Source: a virus
Taxonomy: Duplodnaviria > Caudoviricetes
Direction: 5' to 3' (one strand)
Length of the DNA stretch: 42,099 bases
Virus record (IMG/VR): IMGVR_UViG_3300022670_001120
Location: 1 to 42,099 of that record
The position numbers and the translations under genes were made by a program. Every line of letters begins with the position of its first letter. The stretch's first letter is position 1. Shown here in pieces: positions 22,274 to 38,808 of the stretch. A model generated the notes under the pieces. The model was not told the origin of the DNA. It worked only from the letters and a program-made list of their open reading frames with translations, and ran no database searches.

Positions 22274-24265
22274 TCAGTTTTGAGAACTAATTACTTGTTT
22301 TTGGTAAAAGCGTTCTTGGATTAGAGCGTTTTTCATTTCACGCTCTTCTGCTAGAATTTCACTTATTGGTCTATCATCAGATGCAAATTCATTGAGTATT
22401 CCAACAGTTGAATCATTATTCACTAGGTGTGCATAATGTGTCTTTGATAGTAAATCAAATAGATGTAGTTCTGCACGTTCTGCTGCATCAATCATTCCTT
22501 GTTGTAATACTACATTATCTGCTCTACTTGTATGGGAGTATGGAGTAACATCTGGTACATAATTGGTTAGATCATCACCTTGAATTTGTTTGTAAGATGT
22601 GATATAACCAAACTGTTCTAGTGCACGTTTATTTTCATATTCTTTTAATTTGTAAAACTCTGAATGCAGTCTATCTATAATTGTTACAAGCTTATCTGGT
22701 GTATCTTCAAAGGTGCGATATACAATTGGAATGAATGTTTCAAAGGAGTTTTTCTGATATAATAGTACGGGTTCTGATTTATCCATAGCCATCCAGATAT
22801 CATGTTCTTTGTCCATTCTTTGAACGGTTTGTAACCCCTTGTATTTTATCTCAGATGGTATGTGTAGTATGGTAGGGAAGTTTAACGAATCCCCAATAAT
22901 ATCTAGTCCATCATTGAAATACAATATTTGATTTGCTCTATCATTATCAATTGCTTGGAGTGCAAGGACTTTACCTACTGGAGACTCGTTAAATGAAAAT
23001 TCTATTGATACACGATAACATGGTTCTGTGTTGTCATCAGCTACACACTTTACTTTACTTGAAGAGTATTCTAAACTTGTTGCATTAATTATTGGGGAAG
23101 TTTTGTGATCATTGATTTTAAACTCTATAGCATCCCCGTCATAGTTTGTATAAATTTCGATGCTTGCTTCTGCATCATACGCTTTACTAACTTCAGGAAC
23201 TCCAAAGATAAACTCCAGGAGATATAGTGTATGTGGTGCATATACTGTAGATGTAAAGTTTTGAATTACACCAACTGTCATATTTTGCATTGGGATTGGA
23301 GTATAGAAATTATCAGTTACAGTAAATATTTGACCATTAATTTCTAGTCCATTATCTACTCTTTGTACAAATGTCTTATGATCAAGCCCAAAGGTTGGTC
23401 TGGAGTTATGCTCATCATCAGAACCTCCATTACTAAGAATAGTGATGATTCCAGTATACACTTCAATTAATAATGAATATGCAGATTCAACGTGATTACT
23501 TTTAGATATCTCACCCAGGTTTAATCCAGGATAATTTATCATTCCAATGTCAACGTATTCATTATTTTCTATATACTCATATTTGCTACAATTATCTCCA
23601 TTAGTTCCATGAGCAATTATGCTGCCATTACTGCCACTTTTATCAATGAATAGTACACTACCAACCTGCTTATTACAGGACCATTGCACCTGATCAGTGC
23701 CATCATCGAGAACACCATTAACCAAAGCCTCATTTGGTGAATAAACAACAAAGACTTCATCAATTCTAACACTCTCACTTAGCGAATATGTTGTTACATC
23801 GTCAGTTGCATAAAATGTTAGAAAAATTAGAAGGCTATCTAAATTGTATATGTTTAGTGGGGAATTCATTATAGTATCCAAATCAATTCTAAATGAATCA
23901 TTTTCACAATCCACTTCTTCTCCATATTGTCCAGAATTGGCAGCTATATCGATTAGTGTAGGAGCAGATGATATGGCTGAATAATAAATTGGAATGTAAT
24001 GACTAATCTTGGCTGGAGGTACGTGATCATTTGTTGCCCTATCCTGATATTCAATATCAGCTTTTATCACACATTTGTCACCAGGAGTCATTGTGTTAAA
24101 ATTCCAGCTAATCTGAATTTGGTTTGTACTATTGGTATAACTAGCATATGCGTTTGTTTGTGTTGGAGTATATTCTGTACCAGCACCTATTGCAAATGCA
24201 TCCTCAAATAAGATCCCAGAAGTTAGGATAATTGCAAACACTGTGAACAGCTTGTAATTTAACAT
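22274..24265 (-). CDS. Secreted modular surface protein, paralog A
   Basis: Signal peptide; C-terminal ~390 aa shared with 24613..27138. Confidence 0.75.
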   Translation of the reverse strand: MLNYKLFTVFAIILTSGILFEDAFAIGAGTEYTPTQTNAYASYTNSTNQIQISWNFNTMTPGDKCVIKADIEYQDRATNDHVPPAKISHYIPIYYSAISSAPTLIDIAANSGQYGEEVDCENDSFRIDLDTIMNSPLNIYNLDSLLIFLTFYATDDVTTYSLSESVRIDEVFVVYSPNEALVNGVLDDGTDQVQWSCNKQVGSVLFIDKSGSNGSIIAHGTNGDNCSKYEYIENNEYVDIGMINYPGLNLGEISKSNHVESAYSLLIEVYTGIITILSNGGSDDEHNSRPTFGLDHKTFVQRVDNGLEINGQIFTVTDNFYTPIPMQNMTVGVIQNFTSTVYAPHTLYLLEFIFGVPEVSKAYDAEASIEIYTNYDGDAIEFKINDHKTSPIINATSLEYSSSKVKCVADDNTEPCYRVSIEFSFNESPVGKVLALQAIDNDRANQILYFNDGLDIIGDSLNFPTILHIPSEIKYKGLQTVQRMDKEHDIWMAMDKSEPVLLYQKNSFETFIPIVYRTFEDTPDKLVTIIDRLHSEFYKLKEYENKRALEQFGYITSYKQIQGDDLTNYVPDVTPYSHTSRADNVVLQQGMIDAAERAELHLFDLLSKTHYAHLVNNDSTVGILNEFASDDRPISEILAEEREMKNALIQERFYQKQVISSQN

Positions 24266-24330
24266 CTTAACTTCTTAACATACAATAAATGTACAGGTTA
24301 TAATCAAACACTACTTCCTGTTGTTAGTAT

Positions 24331-24389
24331 TGTATCTTATAGGATACACATGGTAAGTTATGAATTAACTATGTATCTTATGGGTTACA
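24331..24389. promoter_or_regulatory. Pair of 18-bp palindromic operators (TGTATCYYATRRGATACA family)
   Basis: tgtatcttataggataca at 24331 and tgtatcttatgggttaca at 24372. Confidence 0.7.
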
Positions 24390-24397
24390 GGTAGGTA

Positions 24398-24616
24398 TTA
24401 GATGTATTCTAAGTTTTTAGTACTAAATCCCCAGGATAGTTTACACTTGAGACAATAAAAAATTATGAGAATATCTGTTGTTTTTCTTATCATTCCCTCA
24501 TTGTGACATTTGTGGCACTTGTTGCCATATCCTAGAACTCTGAAAAAATTCTTGACAAATTCTAAACGTTGCTGAGGCGGTAACAATCTTTGTCTCATCC
24601 TGGTATATGGAGTCAT
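24398..24616 (-). CDS. Small Zn-finger protein, paralog of 27836..28051
   Basis: FF..LGYGNKCxKC...CxxC..W.F shared. Confidence 0.7.
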   Translation of the reverse strand: MTPYTRMRQRLLPPQQRLEFVKNFFRVLGYGNKCHKCHNEGMIRKTTDILIIFYCLKCKLSWGFSTKNLEYI

Positions 24617-27138
24617 TTTTGAGCAGCTATCACTTGTTTTAGGTATGCACGATCTTGGGTTAGAGTGTTTTTCATTTCACGTTCTTCTGCTAGAATTTCA
24701 TTAATTGGTCTATCATCAGAGGTAAACTCTTCTAATATTCCAACATAGGAGTTGTTCTTAACCAGGTGAGCATAATGGGTTTTTGATAGTAAGTCTAGTA
24801 AGTGTAGTTTGGCACGTTCTTCTGCATCAAGGATACCTTGTTGTAGAACTTTATCATCGGCTCTGCTTGTATGGATAACATTCATCTCTTCTGCCACATA
24901 TTTTGTAAGATCATCACCTTGAATTTGCTTGTAAGATGTTATGTACTGAAACTGCTCAATTGCACGTTTTGTTTCATAGTCTAATAATTTGTAAAACTCT
25001 GAATGCTCTCTATCCATAATTGTAACAAGCTCATCTGATTCAGGTACAAAGGTGCGATACTCTATTGGAATAAATGTCCCAAATGAGTTTTGCTGGTATA
25101 ATAGTACAGGTTCTGATTTATCCATAGCCAACCAGATATCATGTTCTTTGTCTACTCTCTGAATGGTTTGCAGTCCTTTGTATTTAATTTCTGAAACAAT
25201 TTGTTGTATGGTTGCCGGGTTTAATGAATCCCCAACAATGTCTAGTCCATCATTGAAATACAATATGTTGTTCATTCTCTTATAATCTATTGCCTGGAGT
25301 GCAAGGACTTTACCTACTGGAGACTCGTTAAATGAAAATTCTATTGATACTCGATAGCATGGCTCTGAGTTGTCATCAGCTACGCATTTTACTTTAGATG
25401 ATGCAAATTCCAGACTGGTTGCATTAATTATTGGTGAGTCATTGTACTCATTAATTTTAAAGTCTATAACCTCACCATCAAAGTTTGTGTAAATTTCTAT
25501 ACTAGATTCAGCTTCATCCCATTTGTCAATTGTTGGAATTCCAAAGAGAAATTCTGTGATGTATAGTGTGTGGGGAGCATATGCTGTAGCTGTAAAGTTT
25601 TGAGTTGCACCTACTTTTAGTTCAAGTAGATCCATTGGTGTGTAGAAATTATCAGTTACAGTATAGGTCTGATTATTAATTATTAATCCATTATCTACTC
25701 GTTGAACAAATGTCTTGTAATCAATTCCAAAGGTGGGTCTAGATTGGGACTCATCATCAGAACCACCAGCAGATGTGGCAGTAATACTACTTGCCCTTGT
25801 AATGGAGAATAGATGTATGGCACCAGAATTAGTTTCTCCTCCTGTATCATCTTGATGGGCAGATATTGCAATTATTGCGGTATCTCCAGAATCCCTCCAT
25901 AAGGCCATTCCATGACCAAACAGATCAGTTGCAGCAAATGGTGAAATAGCAGTTCTTGTATTTTCTGATTCATTTGATATCTTTTGAGATTCTTTTAGTG
26001 TATCATCAGCATTCAAATACAAAATATGTGCCTCGCCTGAAGTTGCAGCAGTATCATCTCCTGCCTCATTTCCCACTATAATATCATTAACTCCATCATT
26101 ATCCATATCTCCCAGTGATGCAACACCACTACCGAAAGATTCATCATTTGCAATACCAGCAATGGTACTACCTGCAATCTCAGTACTAGAAACAAAAGCA
26201 CCAGCAGCAGTCAAATTAACAATGAATACTGAGCCTCCACCATCACCATCAGCTTGGTTGCTAACAACAATTTTTGTGCCACTAATTGATGCACCATCAT
26301 CGATATACTCGCCAGTGTCAACTCCAATTGTATTTCCAGAAATTGGTGCAGCTGGATGACTGCTCACTGTGCCATCTGCATTCAAAAACAATACCCACAA
26401 GTCTGTAAAATTATCAGGATCACTGTTAGCACCTACAAGTAATTCGTTTTGCCCATCACCATTTAGATCAGTTGCAATTACTGGCCATCCAAAATTTGCA
26501 GTTCCTTGTTCTATGTATGCTCCATCCGCAGGATTAAATCCATTTCCATTTTCTGGGACAATTAATACACAGTTGTCAACTTTACCAGTAGTTTTTAATT
26601 CTAACATATACACGGCACCACTGTTGGCAGTGACTACAGCATTATCTGCATTCACATCATGATTATTGGAGTTTGCACCCAATGCAATGGTTGGTAATCC
26701 ATCACCATCCAAATCACCAACAAATGCTAATTGTTCTATAGATCCAAAATCTCTATTTGTACCATCACCTGCAATGCATCCAGCAGTTAATCCATTAGCT
26801 GTAGCATCCATGATAATGTTATTTGTACTTTTTACAGAGCCATCAGCATTCATAAATAAAATTAGAATGGAACCAAAATCATCAGCAGTATCTGCATCAT
26901 CACCAGCCTCATTATCAAAACCAAACATGATTGAAGCTAAATCAATTACTCCATCTGAATCTAAATCCCCAATTGCTTCTATCTGATAACCTAAATTATT
27001 ATTAAAATCAACAGCACCTGCAATGTCATCATTATCAATTTCTACTCTATCAGTTACAGTCTGGGCAGCATATGCAACAGAAACCACCATCATTCCAAAT
27101 GCAAATAAAAATATTAATTTTAATCTTGTATTAATCAT
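24613..27138 (-). CDS. Secreted FG-GAP/integrin-alpha-like repeat protein, paralog B
   Basis: Signal peptide; GDLDSDG, GDLDGDG, DLNGDG, GDMDNDG loops; FG..., SGAVY and SGAIH motifs. Confidence 0.8.
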   Translation of the reverse strand: MINTRLKLIFLFAFGMMVVSVAYAAQTVTDRVEIDNDDIAGAVDFNNNLGYQIEAIGDLDSDGVIDLASIMFGFDNEAGDDADTADDFGSILILFMNADGSVKSTNNIIMDATANGLTAGCIAGDGTNRDFGSIEQLAFVGDLDGDGLPTIALGANSNNHDVNADNAVVTANSGAVYMLELKTTGKVDNCVLIVPENGNGFNPADGAYIEQGTANFGWPVIATDLNGDGQNELLVGANSDPDNFTDLWVLFLNADGTVSSHPAAPISGNTIGVDTGEYIDDGASISGTKIVVSNQADGDGGGSVFIVNLTAAGAFVSSTEIAGSTIAGIANDESFGSGVASLGDMDNDGVNDIIVGNEAGDDTAATSGEAHILYLNADDTLKESQKISNESENTRTAISPFAATDLFGHGMALWRDSGDTAIIAISAHQDDTGGETNSGAIHLFSITRASSITATSAGGSDDESQSRPTFGIDYKTFVQRVDNGLIINNQTYTVTDNFYTPMDLLELKVGATQNFTATAYAPHTLYITEFLFGIPTIDKWDEAESSIEIYTNFDGEVIDFKINEYNDSPIINATSLEFASSKVKCVADDNSEPCYRVSIEFSFNESPVGKVLALQAIDYKRMNNILYFNDGLDIVGDSLNPATIQQIVSEIKYKGLQTIQRVDKEHDIWLAMDKSEPVLLYQQNSFGTFIPIEYRTFVPESDELVTIMDREHSEFYKLLDYETKRAIEQFQYITSYKQIQGDDLTKYVAEEMNVIHTSRADDKVLQQGILDAEERAKLHLLDLLSKTHYAHLVKNNSYVGILEEFTSDDRPINEILAEEREMKNTLTQDRAYLKQVIAAQK

Positions 27139-27181: not shown

Positions 27182-27308
27182 CGTATGAAATTAAGATATA
27201 CTGTGGGTTTGTAATACCTTGATTCATTACTTTAAGATGGTGTTAGTATTATTTATTGATGGATCGAATTTCCCATGAATGGAATATAAAAAACCAAAGT
27301 TGGGAAAT

Positions 27309-27849
27309 CGTAAGCCCAATATGGTTTTCAATTTCTTACTGACTCGTCGTATTACAATGGGTTTCAAACTTCTATTGACTCGTAAACTTTCCATGGTTTT
27401 CACTTTATTAGTGAACTCGTAATCCTCCTTTGGTTTTCACATGATGGGTGACTCGTTAGAGCATGTTGGTTTTCATTACTTTCATGACTCGTATGGGGAT
27501 TGTGGGTTTCATCCGTTTACTGACTCGCATTGGTTCAAAGGGTTTCAATGGGTATATGACTCGTAATCATCCCTGGGTTTCAGTCTTTCAGTGACTCGGT
27601 ATCTTCCTTGGGTTTCACATATTCTTTGACTCGTAATCTTATTGGGGGTTTCATGTTGTTCTATGACTCGTAATCTTGTTATGGGTTTCATGTTGTTCAA
27701 TGACTCGTAATCATACTGTGGGTTTCAAACATTTCGTGACTCGTTTGTGCTTAATGGGTTTCAATGGGTATATGACTCGTAATCCATGTATGGTTTTCAC
27801 ACTTACTATAACTCGTTCTCTCTCAATGGGTTTCATTATTTAGATGACT
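27309..27849 (-). ncRNA. TIGR-like guide RNA array, 15 units of 35-37 nt
   Basis: Minus-strand unit AGTCA-N9-TGAAA(C/A)CCA-N9-NACG; plus-strand TGACT (or variant) at 27340, 27376, 27412, 27449, 27485, 27521, 27557, 27592, 27627, 27664, 27701, 27737, 27773, 27809, 27845; downstream of a Nop-domain gene. Confidence 0.9.
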
Positions 27850-28051
27850 TCTTAACTCTCTTTGTTCCATTATTTATTGAACCCATATCAAATGACCAAT
27901 TATAATCACATGGTTCACAGTGGAAATTAATCAGGTTCCTTGTTATTTTATAAATGGTTCCCACCTTGAGACATTTTGTACATTTGTTACCATATCCCAA
28001 CATTATGAAAAACTCATCAAGGAGATCTGAATCTTCTTTAATTAGTTTCAT
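27836..28051 (-). CDS. Small Zn-finger protein (start revised to 28051)
   Basis: ATGA overlap with the tasA-like stop; CTKC...CEPC; the revised start aligns with paralog 24398..24616. Confidence 0.7.
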   Translation of the reverse strand: MKLIKEDSDLLDEFFIMLGYGNKCTKCLKVGTIYKITRNLINFHCEPCDYNWSFDMGSINNGTKRVKKSSK

Positions 28052-28863
28052 TCGTCTGTAAAGGCCTCCACCACTGAATGGCCCAACAGTTGTTTTGCAT
28101 ATGGTTCTGTAGCTTCTAATTTCTCTTGCCTTCTCCATGTTTGCCAAACATGTGCAAGAAATATTTTAGAAACTTTTCTTAATGCACGATTATGAATGTG
28201 TCCGTCATTGTATAATGTACGGCCATTCTTTACAATCTTTGTGGGATGTTCTTTTCTCTCCTTTCTTTTTATGGTATCATACAATTTACGATATTTTGAT
28301 TTAGCTGCTGATTGTTTCACAAATGACCCAGATGCCTTCCAAGCTAATACTTTGAGACGGTCATTCCAGTTTGATTGATATCCAATAATTCTTTTTTGTA
28401 GGATTGGTTCAGTTTTAGTTTGGCAAATAGGGCATGCTTCCATGGGGTGTAGCTTCTTTGCTTTCTTTCCTGTCTCATATTCTACTTCAAGATATGTTGG
28501 TTTCTTACATTGTGGGCAGAACCTATTCATCCCATACCCAGAATACTGCCACAAGCTAGACACATGATCAAACTTTCCTATATCATCAATGTATGAAATT
28601 AGTCCAGCAGCAATTAACGGTCCAATTCCCCTAATCTTTGAGAGATACTGTGTGTATAGTGCGTGGTTCTTTAGTTGTCTTACTATTAATTTTTCAATAT
28701 CTTTCTCAAATGCTCCAGCATTCTCCAATATTGTAGTAATTCCATATACTGAGAGTTCTTCTTTGGTTAGTGTGTTTTCTCTCTCTGATGCACCTATTCT
28801 TAATTGAGTTTGAATTCTCTGTGCCTGGAAATCATAGTAAATATCCACAAGATTTCTCAGCAA
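28048..28863 (-). CDS. tasA: TasA-like Nop-domain (IS110 C-terminal related) RNA-guided DNA-binding protein; may start at ATA 28989
   Basis: Coiled coil, LSKIRGIGPLIAAGLIS, HVSSLWQYSG, GHIHNRALRKVSKIFL; no RuvC or HNH domain; adjacent dual-repeat array. Confidence 0.8.
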   Translation of the reverse strand: MLRNLVDIYYDFQAQRIQTQLRIGASERENTLTKEELSVYGITTILENAGAFEKDIEKLIVRQLKNHALYTQYLSKIRGIGPLIAAGLISYIDDIGKFDHVSSLWQYSGYGMNRFCPQCKKPTYLEVEYETGKKAKKLHPMEACPICQTKTEPILQKRIIGYQSNWNDRLKVLAWKASGSFVKQSAAKSKYRKLYDTIKRKERKEHPTKIVKNGRTLYNDGHIHNRALRKVSKIFLAHVWQTWRRQEKLEATEPYAKQLLGHSVVEAFTDE

Positions 28864-28985
28864 AAAGTGTGGAATATCTACTGTATCTTCAAATGGAATT
28901 GGGACATCTTTAGTGGTCTTCTTTTTGGTCTTTGATTTGGTTTTCTTTTTAGTTACAACTTTTAGTGGAGCCTTCTTTTTTGCTG

Positions 28986-29849
28986 CTATTTCTTAACATC
29001 CCCTTTTGTTAGGTCTAGTCCTACCTTTGGAGCTGCAATGTCTATGATGTAATGATATATTCCACGCATTGCAAAGGTGTCTCTTTTTTCTGCAAGTTCT
29101 ATTACTTTGGGTGATTTGAGTAACAGTTTGCCGAGTTCTATCATTTTTTCATCTGGTACTTTATTTTCAAAGTATACTCTGAAAAAATTCCTTAAAATGG
29201 TGTAACGATAAAATGGTGATTCAGTATTTGTTGCTATCTGGTATAATACTGGTACAAAGAGTTTGACCTTCTTGGTGTCAAGAGATGTTATTCCCTGGAT
29301 AAAGTCATCAACAGCTACTGGTCTTACAGGTCTTATTGATGTGCTCTTTGCATAGTGTAGCCAGTTTAGAACAACAGCATAGCGAAACTTTGATACACTA
29401 TTGTAATGATCACATACCTCTCTTAGCTCATTGAAATATGAAATTCTTCCAGTATCTAGTGCTTTAAGATGGTCTCCAAGTGTTAGGGGTTTTCCCAAAT
29501 TTAGTCGTCTATAAATTTCGCGTTGATTCCCTCCAGTATAAATAAATAAAATTAGATCATATGCTAATAATCCATAATATTCTCTAGCATAACGCAATCC
29601 AGCAATTCTATGTTGTCCATCAATAATGTGATATTTTACTTTCTCAGTTCCTGAAACTACACGTAGTGTATTATCTACGAATTTGTTATCCATGATTGCG
29701 TTTGCGATTCTTCCGATTTTAGTAGGGGATATTTTCCTCTCAAATAATGCAGGTGCAAATGTTTTTTCTAAATCTTCGAGTTTAAAATCATTAAGATAAA
29801 CTATCTCTGCCTTTGGTGGCATGTATACAGTTGAACGTGTTTGGCTCAT
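28986..29849 (-). CDS. ParB/Srx-superfamily DGQHR protein
   Basis: FERKIS, IIDGQHRIAGL, YRRLNLGKPL. Confidence 0.75.
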   Translation of the reverse strand: MSQTRSTVYMPPKAEIVYLNDFKLEDLEKTFAPALFERKISPTKIGRIANAIMDNKFVDNTLRVVSGTEKVKYHIIDGQHRIAGLRYAREYYGLLAYDLILFIYTGGNQREIYRRLNLGKPLTLGDHLKALDTGRISYFNELREVCDHYNSVSKFRYAVVLNWLHYAKSTSIRPVRPVAVDDFIQGITSLDTKKVKLFVPVLYQIATNTESPFYRYTILRNFFRVYFENKVPDEKMIELGKLLLKSPKVIELAEKRDTFAMRGIYHYIIDIAAPKVGLDLTKGDVKK

Positions 29850-30750: not shown

Positions 30751-31113
30751 TCATATGTGGAGGGCCTTCCTTAGTATGCTGTTTAGAATTTTGGAGTAAC
30801 TATTAGATGGCGCATCACAATAATTTTTGGCACAATTCTCAATTGCATTGGCTGTATAACTAATAATTCTATCATGATTATCCATATCAATTACTAGAGT
30901 CATTCTGAGATTTCCACGTGAATTTCGTGGTGTCCTAAATTTATCCAAGTTTTTAAAATTGGATCCTCTGATCATATCATTAACAACTCGTGACAGAAAG
31001 ACTACTTTCTCTGATAATTTGGCTTCTCTATCACAATTTTTTTCTAGTAATGGTCTGATATCTGAATCTAAAGATACAGTCTTTCGCACAAAATCAATGG
31101 TGCGTCTTCTCAT
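30751..31113 (-). CDS. Tandem ribbon-helix-helix-like regulator
   Basis: RKTVSLD...LSRVVNDMIR and RMTLVID...YSKILNSILR. Confidence 0.6.
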   Translation of the reverse strand: MRRRTIDFVRKTVSLDSDIRPLLEKNCDREAKLSEKVVFLSRVVNDMIRGSNFKNLDKFRTPRNSRGNLRMTLVIDMDNHDRIISYTANAIENCAKNYCDAPSNSYSKILNSILRKALHI

Positions 31114-36423: not shown

Positions 36424-37263
36424 TTAAGGAATGTAGGAAGGCAATACTTCACTAATCATTACATTCCAAATCAAGTGGATGGACTTTTGTGAACCTTGCA
36501 TGTTCAACAATATTCCTCTTACTTTCTCGTTTTTCTCAAGCTTCATACCAATTGCCATAAAATCAGCTTCAAGATCTGGGTAATCATGAGTAAGTCTGAC
36601 CATATTTCTAAACATTGGAGATTTTGAAAGATGAGTACTTTTCAAAGTTTCACCGTTTGCCTTTACTGCTTCTATTGCCAAAGTGACTGCTTTACTCTCT
36701 TGGGGAGTTATGCTAAGGAATAAATCCCTTGTTTCTGTTCTGTAACTCGCTATAGATTGTGCACTATTGTTTCTTACATACAATATTGCCATCAATGCAT
36801 CTGCATAGCAAAATTCAGTCTTGCTTCGGTAGTGATTCATGAATTTCCTATTCTCTTCAAAGTATGGAACGGTACCATCGTCTAGTGCTTTTGTGAAATC
36901 CCTTACAGTTAATGCTCTTCCTGAGTTGGAATTTACATATGCTTCTCTTTCTAATTTCTTGTCAAAAATATGAAGTACCAAATGAAATGTTTTTACTCCA
37001 TAGTCTTTGTAAGCCATTTTCAAAGCTTCTAGTCTGTGTTGTCCATCAAAGATTGAATATCTGTTCTCACCGATTTTGGTTCCCATAATAGTGTGGTTGT
37101 GCATCTTTTCTGAGATTATAGATTCTAGAATTTTGTTCACACTTGAAATATTTACCTTTCTCTCAAATTCTGCATATTCAAACATCTCAGATATTTTTGA
37201 CAAATCAAAGTTATCCAATTGAATAATGCTGAAGTCTTTTTGTGATTGTGTTTTCATAGTCAT
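36424..37263 (-). CDS. Second ParB/Srx-superfamily DGQHR protein
   Basis: FERKVN, IFDGQHRLEAL, NSGRALT..D..KALDDG; aligns with 28986..29849. Confidence 0.75.
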   Translation of the reverse strand: MTMKTQSQKDFSIIQLDNFDLSKISEMFEYAEFERKVNISSVNKILESIISEKMHNHTIMGTKIGENRYSIFDGQHRLEALKMAYKDYGVKTFHLVLHIFDKKLEREAYVNSNSGRALTVRDFTKALDDGTVPYFEENRKFMNHYRSKTEFCYADALMAILYVRNNSAQSIASYRTETRDLFLSITPQESKAVTLAIEAVKANGETLKSTHLSKSPMFRNMVRLTHDYPDLEADFMAIGMKLEKNEKVRGILLNMQGSQKSIHLIWNVMISEVLPSYIP

Positions 37264-38337: not shown

Positions 38338-38808
38338 TCAAGGATTAATGACTAACCATGCAGATCCATATGGAGCAGCTGATGGACCTGGTTTACCATC
38401 TTTCCAAAATCTAATTCTTCCCCTGTGAAAATATACCTTGACAAAATCATTCTCTGTAACATATCTCTGCCACCATCTAGTGTCAGTTTTAGCATAAATC
38501 AAAATGATACATGGTACTCCCCAAGCGATACTCTGGTTAATTGCATACTCTAACCACTCCTCTTTGTTAGAATATGGAGGATTCATGAAAAATGGTTTAT
38601 TCCATAAATGATCAAAGCCATTTCTATGTTCTGGATTTGGATGGTCTGGTCCATACCATTTGAAACACTTTGTTGTTTTACTTGTTGCACACACATCAAT
38701 CTCAGGATAAATCTTCACTTTATTACAAAACTCTTTAAAAATATCTGGCGGTGTCTCCCACAAATCATGAACACCTATTGATTGTAAATGTTGAATTGAT
38801 TTGTTCAA
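38338..38808 (-). CDS. Phage-type DNA N6-adenine methyltransferase
   Basis: DLWETP, IDVCA, FMNPPYS, KTDTRWW, GRIRF. Confidence 0.85.
   Translation of the reverse strand: MNKSIQHLQSIGVHDLWETPPDIFKEFCNKVKIYPEIDVCATSKTTKCFKWYGPDHPNPEHRNGFDHLWNKPFFMNPPYSNKEEWLEYAINQSIAWGVPCIILIYAKTDTRWWQRYVTENDFVKVYFHRGRIRFWKDGKPGPSAAPYGSAWLVINP

Follow-up and report, generated by a model that had tools for sequence, protein, structure and literature searches.

Whole guides recur as A-B units in dual-repeat TIGR arrays related to that of a 42-kb virus record

The array, its operon and the virus

The stretch of DNA analysed here, in the following called the window, is a record of 42,099 nucleotides from a virus whose genes include terminase, integrase, tail-like and Dam-family ones. 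The features needed for the discussion are:

27288..27298, minus strand: T-rich tract directly 3' of the array, a likely archaeal-type terminator
27308..27849, minus strand: dual-repeat TIGR array of 15 units, each made up in order of an edge repeat, then spacer A, the loop repeat and spacer B
27313..27339, minus strand: unit 15, of a guide family present in 6 other arrays
27422..27448, minus strand: unit 12, of a guide family present in 9 other arrays
27530..27556, minus strand: unit 9, with the spacer A of unit 3 and a spacer B that is 3 edits off; absent from other arrays
27636..27700, minus strand: units 5 and 6, neighbouring near-duplicates, both with a 10-nt spacer A; absent from other arrays
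27710..27736, minus strand: unit 4, whose guide family is the most widespread, with members in 11 other arrays
27746..27772, minus strand: unit 3, with the spacer A of unit 9; absent from other arrays
27782..27808, minus strand: unit 2, with a counterpart in one other array (L080) that differs only at position 9 of each half
27836..28051, minus strand: 71-aa cysteine-rich ORF between tasA and the array
28048..28863, minus strand: tasA, coding for a nuclease-less protein that has a Nop domain, a four-cysteine insertion and a Y/H pair
28986..29849, minus strand: parB-like (DGQHR) gene immediately upstream of tasA (PHROG 1033, E 2.9e-5)

The array has the dual-repeat organization, i.e. two alternating repeats of 8-12 nt with spacers of approximately 9 nt in a unit of approximately 36 nt. 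The loop repeat is TGAAA[A/C]CCA, the edge repeat is mostly TACGAGTCA, and the unit period varies from 35 to 37 nt. Truncated edge repeats form the borders, 5'-truncated at 27849-27845 and 3'-truncated at 27312-27308. The pairing between box D (UG) and box C (CCA) is present, as UG..CCA in the loop and as UA..UCA in the edge, where there is a compensatory A-U pair relative to the TaTIGR array discussed in the last section. In the 20 related arrays defined below the G-C is kept at this pair in 279 of 286 loops and the A-U is found in 185 of 286 edges. A hairpin scan did not list the putative terminator at 27288..27298; there is only a T tract at this place. Parsing the array anew gave the same 15 minus-strand A/B pairs that had been listed in a sequence-only reading of this DNA. 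Spacer A of unit 1 coincides with the last codons and the stop codon of the 71-aa ORF (27836-27849, minus strand), and because of this overlap unit 1 may be a by-product of packing instead of a real guide.

The best sequence matches of TasA in the PDB are TasR (9MTY, E 1e-29) and TasH (E 6e-9). A structural model based on an alignment (pLDDT 82) ranked TasR and TasH first, with IS621 far lower; the fold from the single sequence was poor (pLDDT 42). An N-terminal RuvC or HNH domain was not found: the N-terminus is a low-confidence Lys-rich tail and the alignments to TasR begin in the Nop region. The residues Y297 and H304 are invariant in 25 aligned sequences and align with Y289 and H296 of SpTasH, the C-terminal processing pair; the four-cysteine insertion is likewise invariant in 25 aligned relatives. 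Identity as an IS110 transposase was rejected, there being no N-terminal DEDD/RuvC recombinase domain and the IS621 structures ranking well below Tas; the PHROG label "transposase" likely reflects the common Nop fold. The tasA frame is open to 28989, 42 codons upstream of the listed TTG, where an ATA overlaps the stop codon of the parB-like gene, an operon arrangement as in tasParB-tasA loci. This extension (28863-28989) adds a Lys-rich N-terminal tail, as in relatives, and the start of tasA is possibly a non-ATG codon.

The 71-aa ORF is a paralogue of the ORF at 24398-24616 (43% identity over 51 aa, E 6e-14). Two large signal-peptide proteins of 663 and 841 aa, with FG-GAP repeats in one of them, are encoded on the minus strand at 22274-27138; they have a C-terminal region in common (74% identity) and this paralogue of the 71-aa ORF lies between their genes, an arrangement suggestive of a surface-protein module that has been duplicated. 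The minus strand also carries another parB-like gene and a gene for a Dam-family methyltransferase, at 36424-37263 and 38338-38808, and an ORF at 30751-31113. The integrase has its best matches in archaeal viruses, and an HTH_45 protein and a surface-like protein have archaeal look-alikes, the latter as a lead only; from the sequence a Nitrososphaerota archaeon is weakly indicated as the host. All words sampled from the window are present in one sequencing run, from a metagenome of marine sediment, which may be where this DNA originated. No Cas1-like gene and no Cas1/Cas2 hit was seen in the window ORFs scanned (32 against Pfam and 30 against PHROGs, with small ORFs partly covered). A CRISPR-Cas system was rejected, as neither a single repeat type of 25-36 nt nor cas genes were found in these scans.

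Guides within and between arrays

Related arrays were collected from 12 tasA loci, 19 loci found by the repeat pattern and 116 metagenome loci, many of them there by chance; the metagenome loci were drawn from 9 of the 64 parts of that collection. Altogether 148 sequences were parsed, and after removal of 13 duplicates there were 55 arrays with 587 units, the parser skipping some degenerate units. The clade set discussed in the following consists of 20 arrays with 286 units, including the window array, joined by common units. The sequence-only reading had suggested looking for unit variation among relatives, and units do vary across these arrays: 41 guide families (154 units) are found in at least 2 of the 20 arrays, the most widespread ones reaching up to 12, and 132 of the 286 units belong to no family found in more than one array. 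Four of the 15 window units (4, 12, 15 and 2) have relatives elsewhere.

The order of the families is loosely kept. The family of unit 4 is placed anywhere from the first to the last position, and contigs in two runs (X1, possibly the source of this DNA, and X2) connect units 12 and 4 through a different intervening unit. When the order of family pairs was compared across arrays 242 were concordant and 111 discordant (of 353); the order being partly kept, vertical descent with loss accounts for part of the pattern.

The first-unit position is held by two guide families, one in L001/L003/L020/L066, with A and B partly self-complementary as a target, and one in L009/L010/L012/L023; such recurrent first units might be anchor or regulatory units. 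Some relatives have more than one array or sub-array, up- or downstream of tasA (L008/L020 on one contig, L005 and L022). A widespread family has a run of G in its A half and a run of A in its B half (L004, L005, L007, L009, L012, L023, L037, L059, L133), and the site predicted from it therefore resembles a non-coding signal, be it a terminator's 3' arm or something else.

The reuse and near-duplication of spacers that had been seen from the sequence of the window array was confirmed. The spacer A TATACCCAT is present in units 3 and 9 with differing B halves; when sets of 15 A and 15 B halves were drawn 100,000 times as random 9-mers of the same composition, either set contained an identical pair in 0.33% of the draws. 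The two B halves are not unrelated, being 3 edits apart with 5 of 9 positions identical, and a whole-unit duplicate in which B has since diverged fits equally well as a swap of halves. Units 5 and 6 are 1 edit apart in A and 2 edits apart in B. In the 20 arrays there are 9 near-duplicate pairs within arrays. B did not diverge significantly faster than A in duplicates (17 vs 8 edits, p 0.11), and across families the two are equal. The best reading of units 3/9 and 5/6 is that they are drifted whole-unit duplicates, or duplicates selected to cover the variants of one target.

The trinucleotide GAT was also correctly noted to end 7 of the 15 B spacers; among the 271 units of the 19 related arrays 21 end in this way. 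The binomial probability of this excess is 6e-5, or 4e-4 with units 5 and 6 counted once, and 1e-3 if any trinucleotide at any of the four ends is allowed; it should be noted that units 7 and 8 are 35 nt long and that their GAT end hinges on the placement of the missing base. GAT is common in the families of two of the seven GAT units (4 and 12). The bias is real but peculiar to the window array. Conversion from the repeats was rejected as its cause, as no sign of such conversion was seen. The tetranucleotide GATC at the A/B junction is not significantly enriched (4 vs 2.0 expected, p 0.11). In the window as a whole GATC is under-represented (113 vs 195 expected).

The sequence-only reading had proposed that the guides diversify by half-unit recombination and duplication without acquisition of the Cas1 type. 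The guide array, the lack of a Cas1-like gene in the scans, and duplication and recombination all stand; what is not supported is that diversity comes mainly from half-unit recombination, an idea mostly overturned by the comparison with relatives. Of the pairs of units from different arrays with an identical B, 105 of 110 also have A halves no more than 2 edits apart, and the A of the next unit is that close in only 5 of 78. When an identical A is found, B is within 2 edits in 92 of 107 pairs, and the B of the previous unit in 6 of 84. Such pairs are not independent, so the count was repeated with distinct halves present in at least 2 arrays: a partner no more than 3 edits different is retained by 30 of 30 B halves and by 23 of 27 A halves, whereas the neighbour on the other side of the edge repeat is kept throughout by 0 of 23 and 3 of 25. 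One of the four exceptional A halves has an unrelated B and the others have B partners 4 edits apart, which leaves the A half TAGAGATTT, in L012 compared to L007/L009, as the single clear half swap. The module is the whole guide, A and B travelling together.

The ends of the two halves point in the same direction. The last bases of A and B (A9 and B9) are complementary in 83 of 169 non-redundant units, where 46.8 are expected (0 of 5000 shuffles), and outside the clade in 133 of 290 vs 74.6; the window array by itself shows no enrichment (5 of 15 vs 4.7). Free reassortment of halves would erase this complementarity. Because it exceeds chance the A and B halves probably derive from one contiguous site, and by arithmetic from the A9/B9 counts the site read would be 17 bp long in approximately 30% of the units, with its centre common to both halves.

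The guides have changed little. At four-fold degenerate sites the tasA genes have a median difference of 0.52 (13 genes, 78 pairs), and 47 guide matches at no more than 1 edit were found against an upper bound of 3.8 if all units were orthologous and neutral. Near-identical guides despite diverged tasA genes fit either selection or recent exchange. The numbers of changes at spacer positions 1 to 9 are 5, 10, 15, 6, 8, 14, 8, 12 and 31, i.e. position 9 takes 31 of the 109 changes (chi-square p 2e-6), and the remaining positions are flat (p 0.21).

Targets and a model for the guide units

The target was taken to be A followed by the reverse complement of B, because this geometry can be deduced from the published cut positions and the 8-nt 3' overhang; other orientations were also tested locally. 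The enrichment of targets over shuffled pairs, which had been suggested as a check on the guides, was not found in the window, in related viruses or in IMG/VR. Within the window 261 distinct guides in four orientations gave no self-target with fewer than 2 mismatches and no excess, and 254 guides gave none with fewer than 2 mismatches in the A plus reverse complement of B geometry in 404 kb of related records; gapped and overlapping geometries gave match counts at chance level. A near-match of an L003 guide to tasA (2-base overlap) was discarded, being one locus counted 8 times and within chance.

Exact scans of IMG/VR with three widespread families (18 bp, two of them also 17 bp) gave 1, 13, 16, 39 and 3 records, to be compared with a chance level of approximately 1-15 distinct loci, which is a rough estimate made without a shuffled control. 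These matches reduce to a number of unrelated genes, none of the contigs turns up in two lists, and no convincing match to a second family lies nearby. The record L214, with the dataset number of two array contigs, was followed up and dropped: it is a fragment of 4.7 kb that has terminase-like ORFs and lacks a match to a second family. Six loci with related integrases had 6 near-matches vs 1.5 expected (p 0.005), but the excess was not replicated on the remaining 99 kb of five of these records (2 vs 2.0).

Near-matches to the clade's own genomes are rarer than for shuffled pairs (2 of 164 vs 8.3, p 0.013), and a second self-match test gave 40 near-matches vs 53 shuffled (p 0.007). These tests were run after the trend had been seen, and p was below 0.05 in 3 of 10 overlapping tests; there is thus a hint that guides avoid the genomes of their own clade.

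We consider it probable that TIGR units recur as intact A+B pairs, recombine at the edge repeats, and are kept for conserved non-self sites bound by TasA. The observations from which this model starts are direct: the anatomy of the array, the identity of TasA, the A-B linkage and its breaking across edges, the low divergence of guides and the A9/B9 complementarity. By analogy with published work on other members, the array would be transcribed and cut in the edge repeats into RNAs of approximately 36 nt, and a Tas dimer would bind both strands of the target guided by RNA. The repression by another nuclease-less TasA suggests that the TasA of the window could bind and probably silence a conserved DNA site. 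Both halves of a guide would be born together from one contiguous site of 17-18 bp, and units would likely be exchanged, duplicated and lost through recombination at the edge repeats. Purifying selection would keep the units and purge broken pairs, with most of the drift at position 9, and the targets would be non-self, either in the host or in another mobile element. The argument for selection and function is indirect, since no target was identified in the DNA searched.

A more specific version, which we put forward tentatively, is that viruses of ammonia-oxidising archaea pool guide cassettes made in one step from a site of 17-18 bp with one half inverted, and that a core of these cassettes, retained in divergent viruses, silences fixed sites on the host chromosome. 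If true, natural TIGR targets would be known for the first time, as would a way of acquiring and exchanging guides without Cas1.

The low divergence of guides might also come from frequent swapping of units between co-infecting viruses with little selection on the identity of the target, and it must be conceded that recent neutral swapping would equally yield near-identical units in diverged viruses. Guide sharing does not track TasA identity (rho -0.08, p 0.48), which counts for swapping and against selected units, contigs carrying related arrays and tasA genes are found together in individual runs, and the searches of the window, related records and IMG/VR were without a target. We nevertheless find swapping an unlikely explanation: swapping through repeats of 9 nt should split pairs at the loop and at the edge with equal frequency, contrary to what is observed, the variation is concentrated at position 9, and a few families are spread over many arrays while nearly half of the units belong to none.

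Independent acquisition of the recurrent families from the same conserved sites, the guide variants being copies of target alleles, would agree with the origin from a contiguous site indicated by A9 and B9, and some families do vary at third codon positions only, in one frame. The pooled test for such codon tracking is at chance, 49 of 109 vs 49.4 for the 18-bp site and p > 0.3 for all geometries of 16-19 bp, identical registers in many arrays are simpler to explain by descent, and no acquisition gene is evident; this explanation is improbable as well. That new guides arise mainly by half-unit recombination at the loop repeat is very unlikely: published work gives the two halves equivalent roles in cleavage, and units 3/9 as well as the A half found with two unrelated B halves are what it has in its favour, but there is a single clear swap (against 0.14 identical A pairs expected by chance), partners are kept, the A9/B9 complementarity persists, and the B halves of units 3 and 9 are close to each other. 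Intact units recombining at edge repeats remain our preferred model.

Comparison with known systems

CRISPR arrays store guides in tandem, lose units and have spacers in common between relatives, and arrays of the window type do likewise. The window array differs from them in having two repeat types, a split guide, and common units which may be at any position.

The locus is an ordinary member of the published TIGR-TasA family, because it has a Nop-domain TasA resembling TasR, a parB-like gene, the TaTIGR loop repeat, and a clade represented in Table S1 of Faure et al. (2025; PMC12045711), where its TasA proteins are in cluster node27591node with 20 rows; the TasA cluster as a whole has over 100 proteins. 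With the dual-repeat TIGR-TasA systems with tasParB, as described in that paper, it has in common the 9-nt alternating repeats and spacers, the 36-nt period and the truncated ends, as well as a solo Nop protein and a parB-like gene in the operon. The closest solved relative is TaTIGR-TasR from a Thermoproteota archaeon (PDB 9MTY). According to Table S3 of Faure et al. its loop repeat is identical; the edge repeat differs at 2 of 9 positions, and the TasA of the window is without the RuvC domain. Through the two changes in the edge the G-C pair of box D and box C becomes A-U, while the loops keep the G-C, so the two repeats are asymmetric.

The TasA repressors of Xu et al. (2026; bioRxiv 10.64898/2026.09.09.750476) are without nuclease like the one in the window and indicate its likely mode of action. 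In that preprint repression is demonstrated for another TasA with engineered guides in E. coli, and natural targets and spacer acquisition are called unknown. Faure et al. call the maintenance of arrays an enigma, and the accessible part of their paper gives neither a comparison of guides between arrays nor a natural target; the window TasA differs in addition by the invariant four-cysteine insertion. The literature searched, which was mostly without subscription papers, contained no account of TIGR arrays having guides in common or of guides being shuffled between them. The gain of guides and their targets are stated as open questions in both papers, partly because a single 18-mer has many false matches. 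Recurrent guides, with their variants and a geometry of 17 or 18 bp, provide a shortlist for a far more specific target search, and any model for acquisition has to meet the constraint that both halves of a guide arise and travel together.
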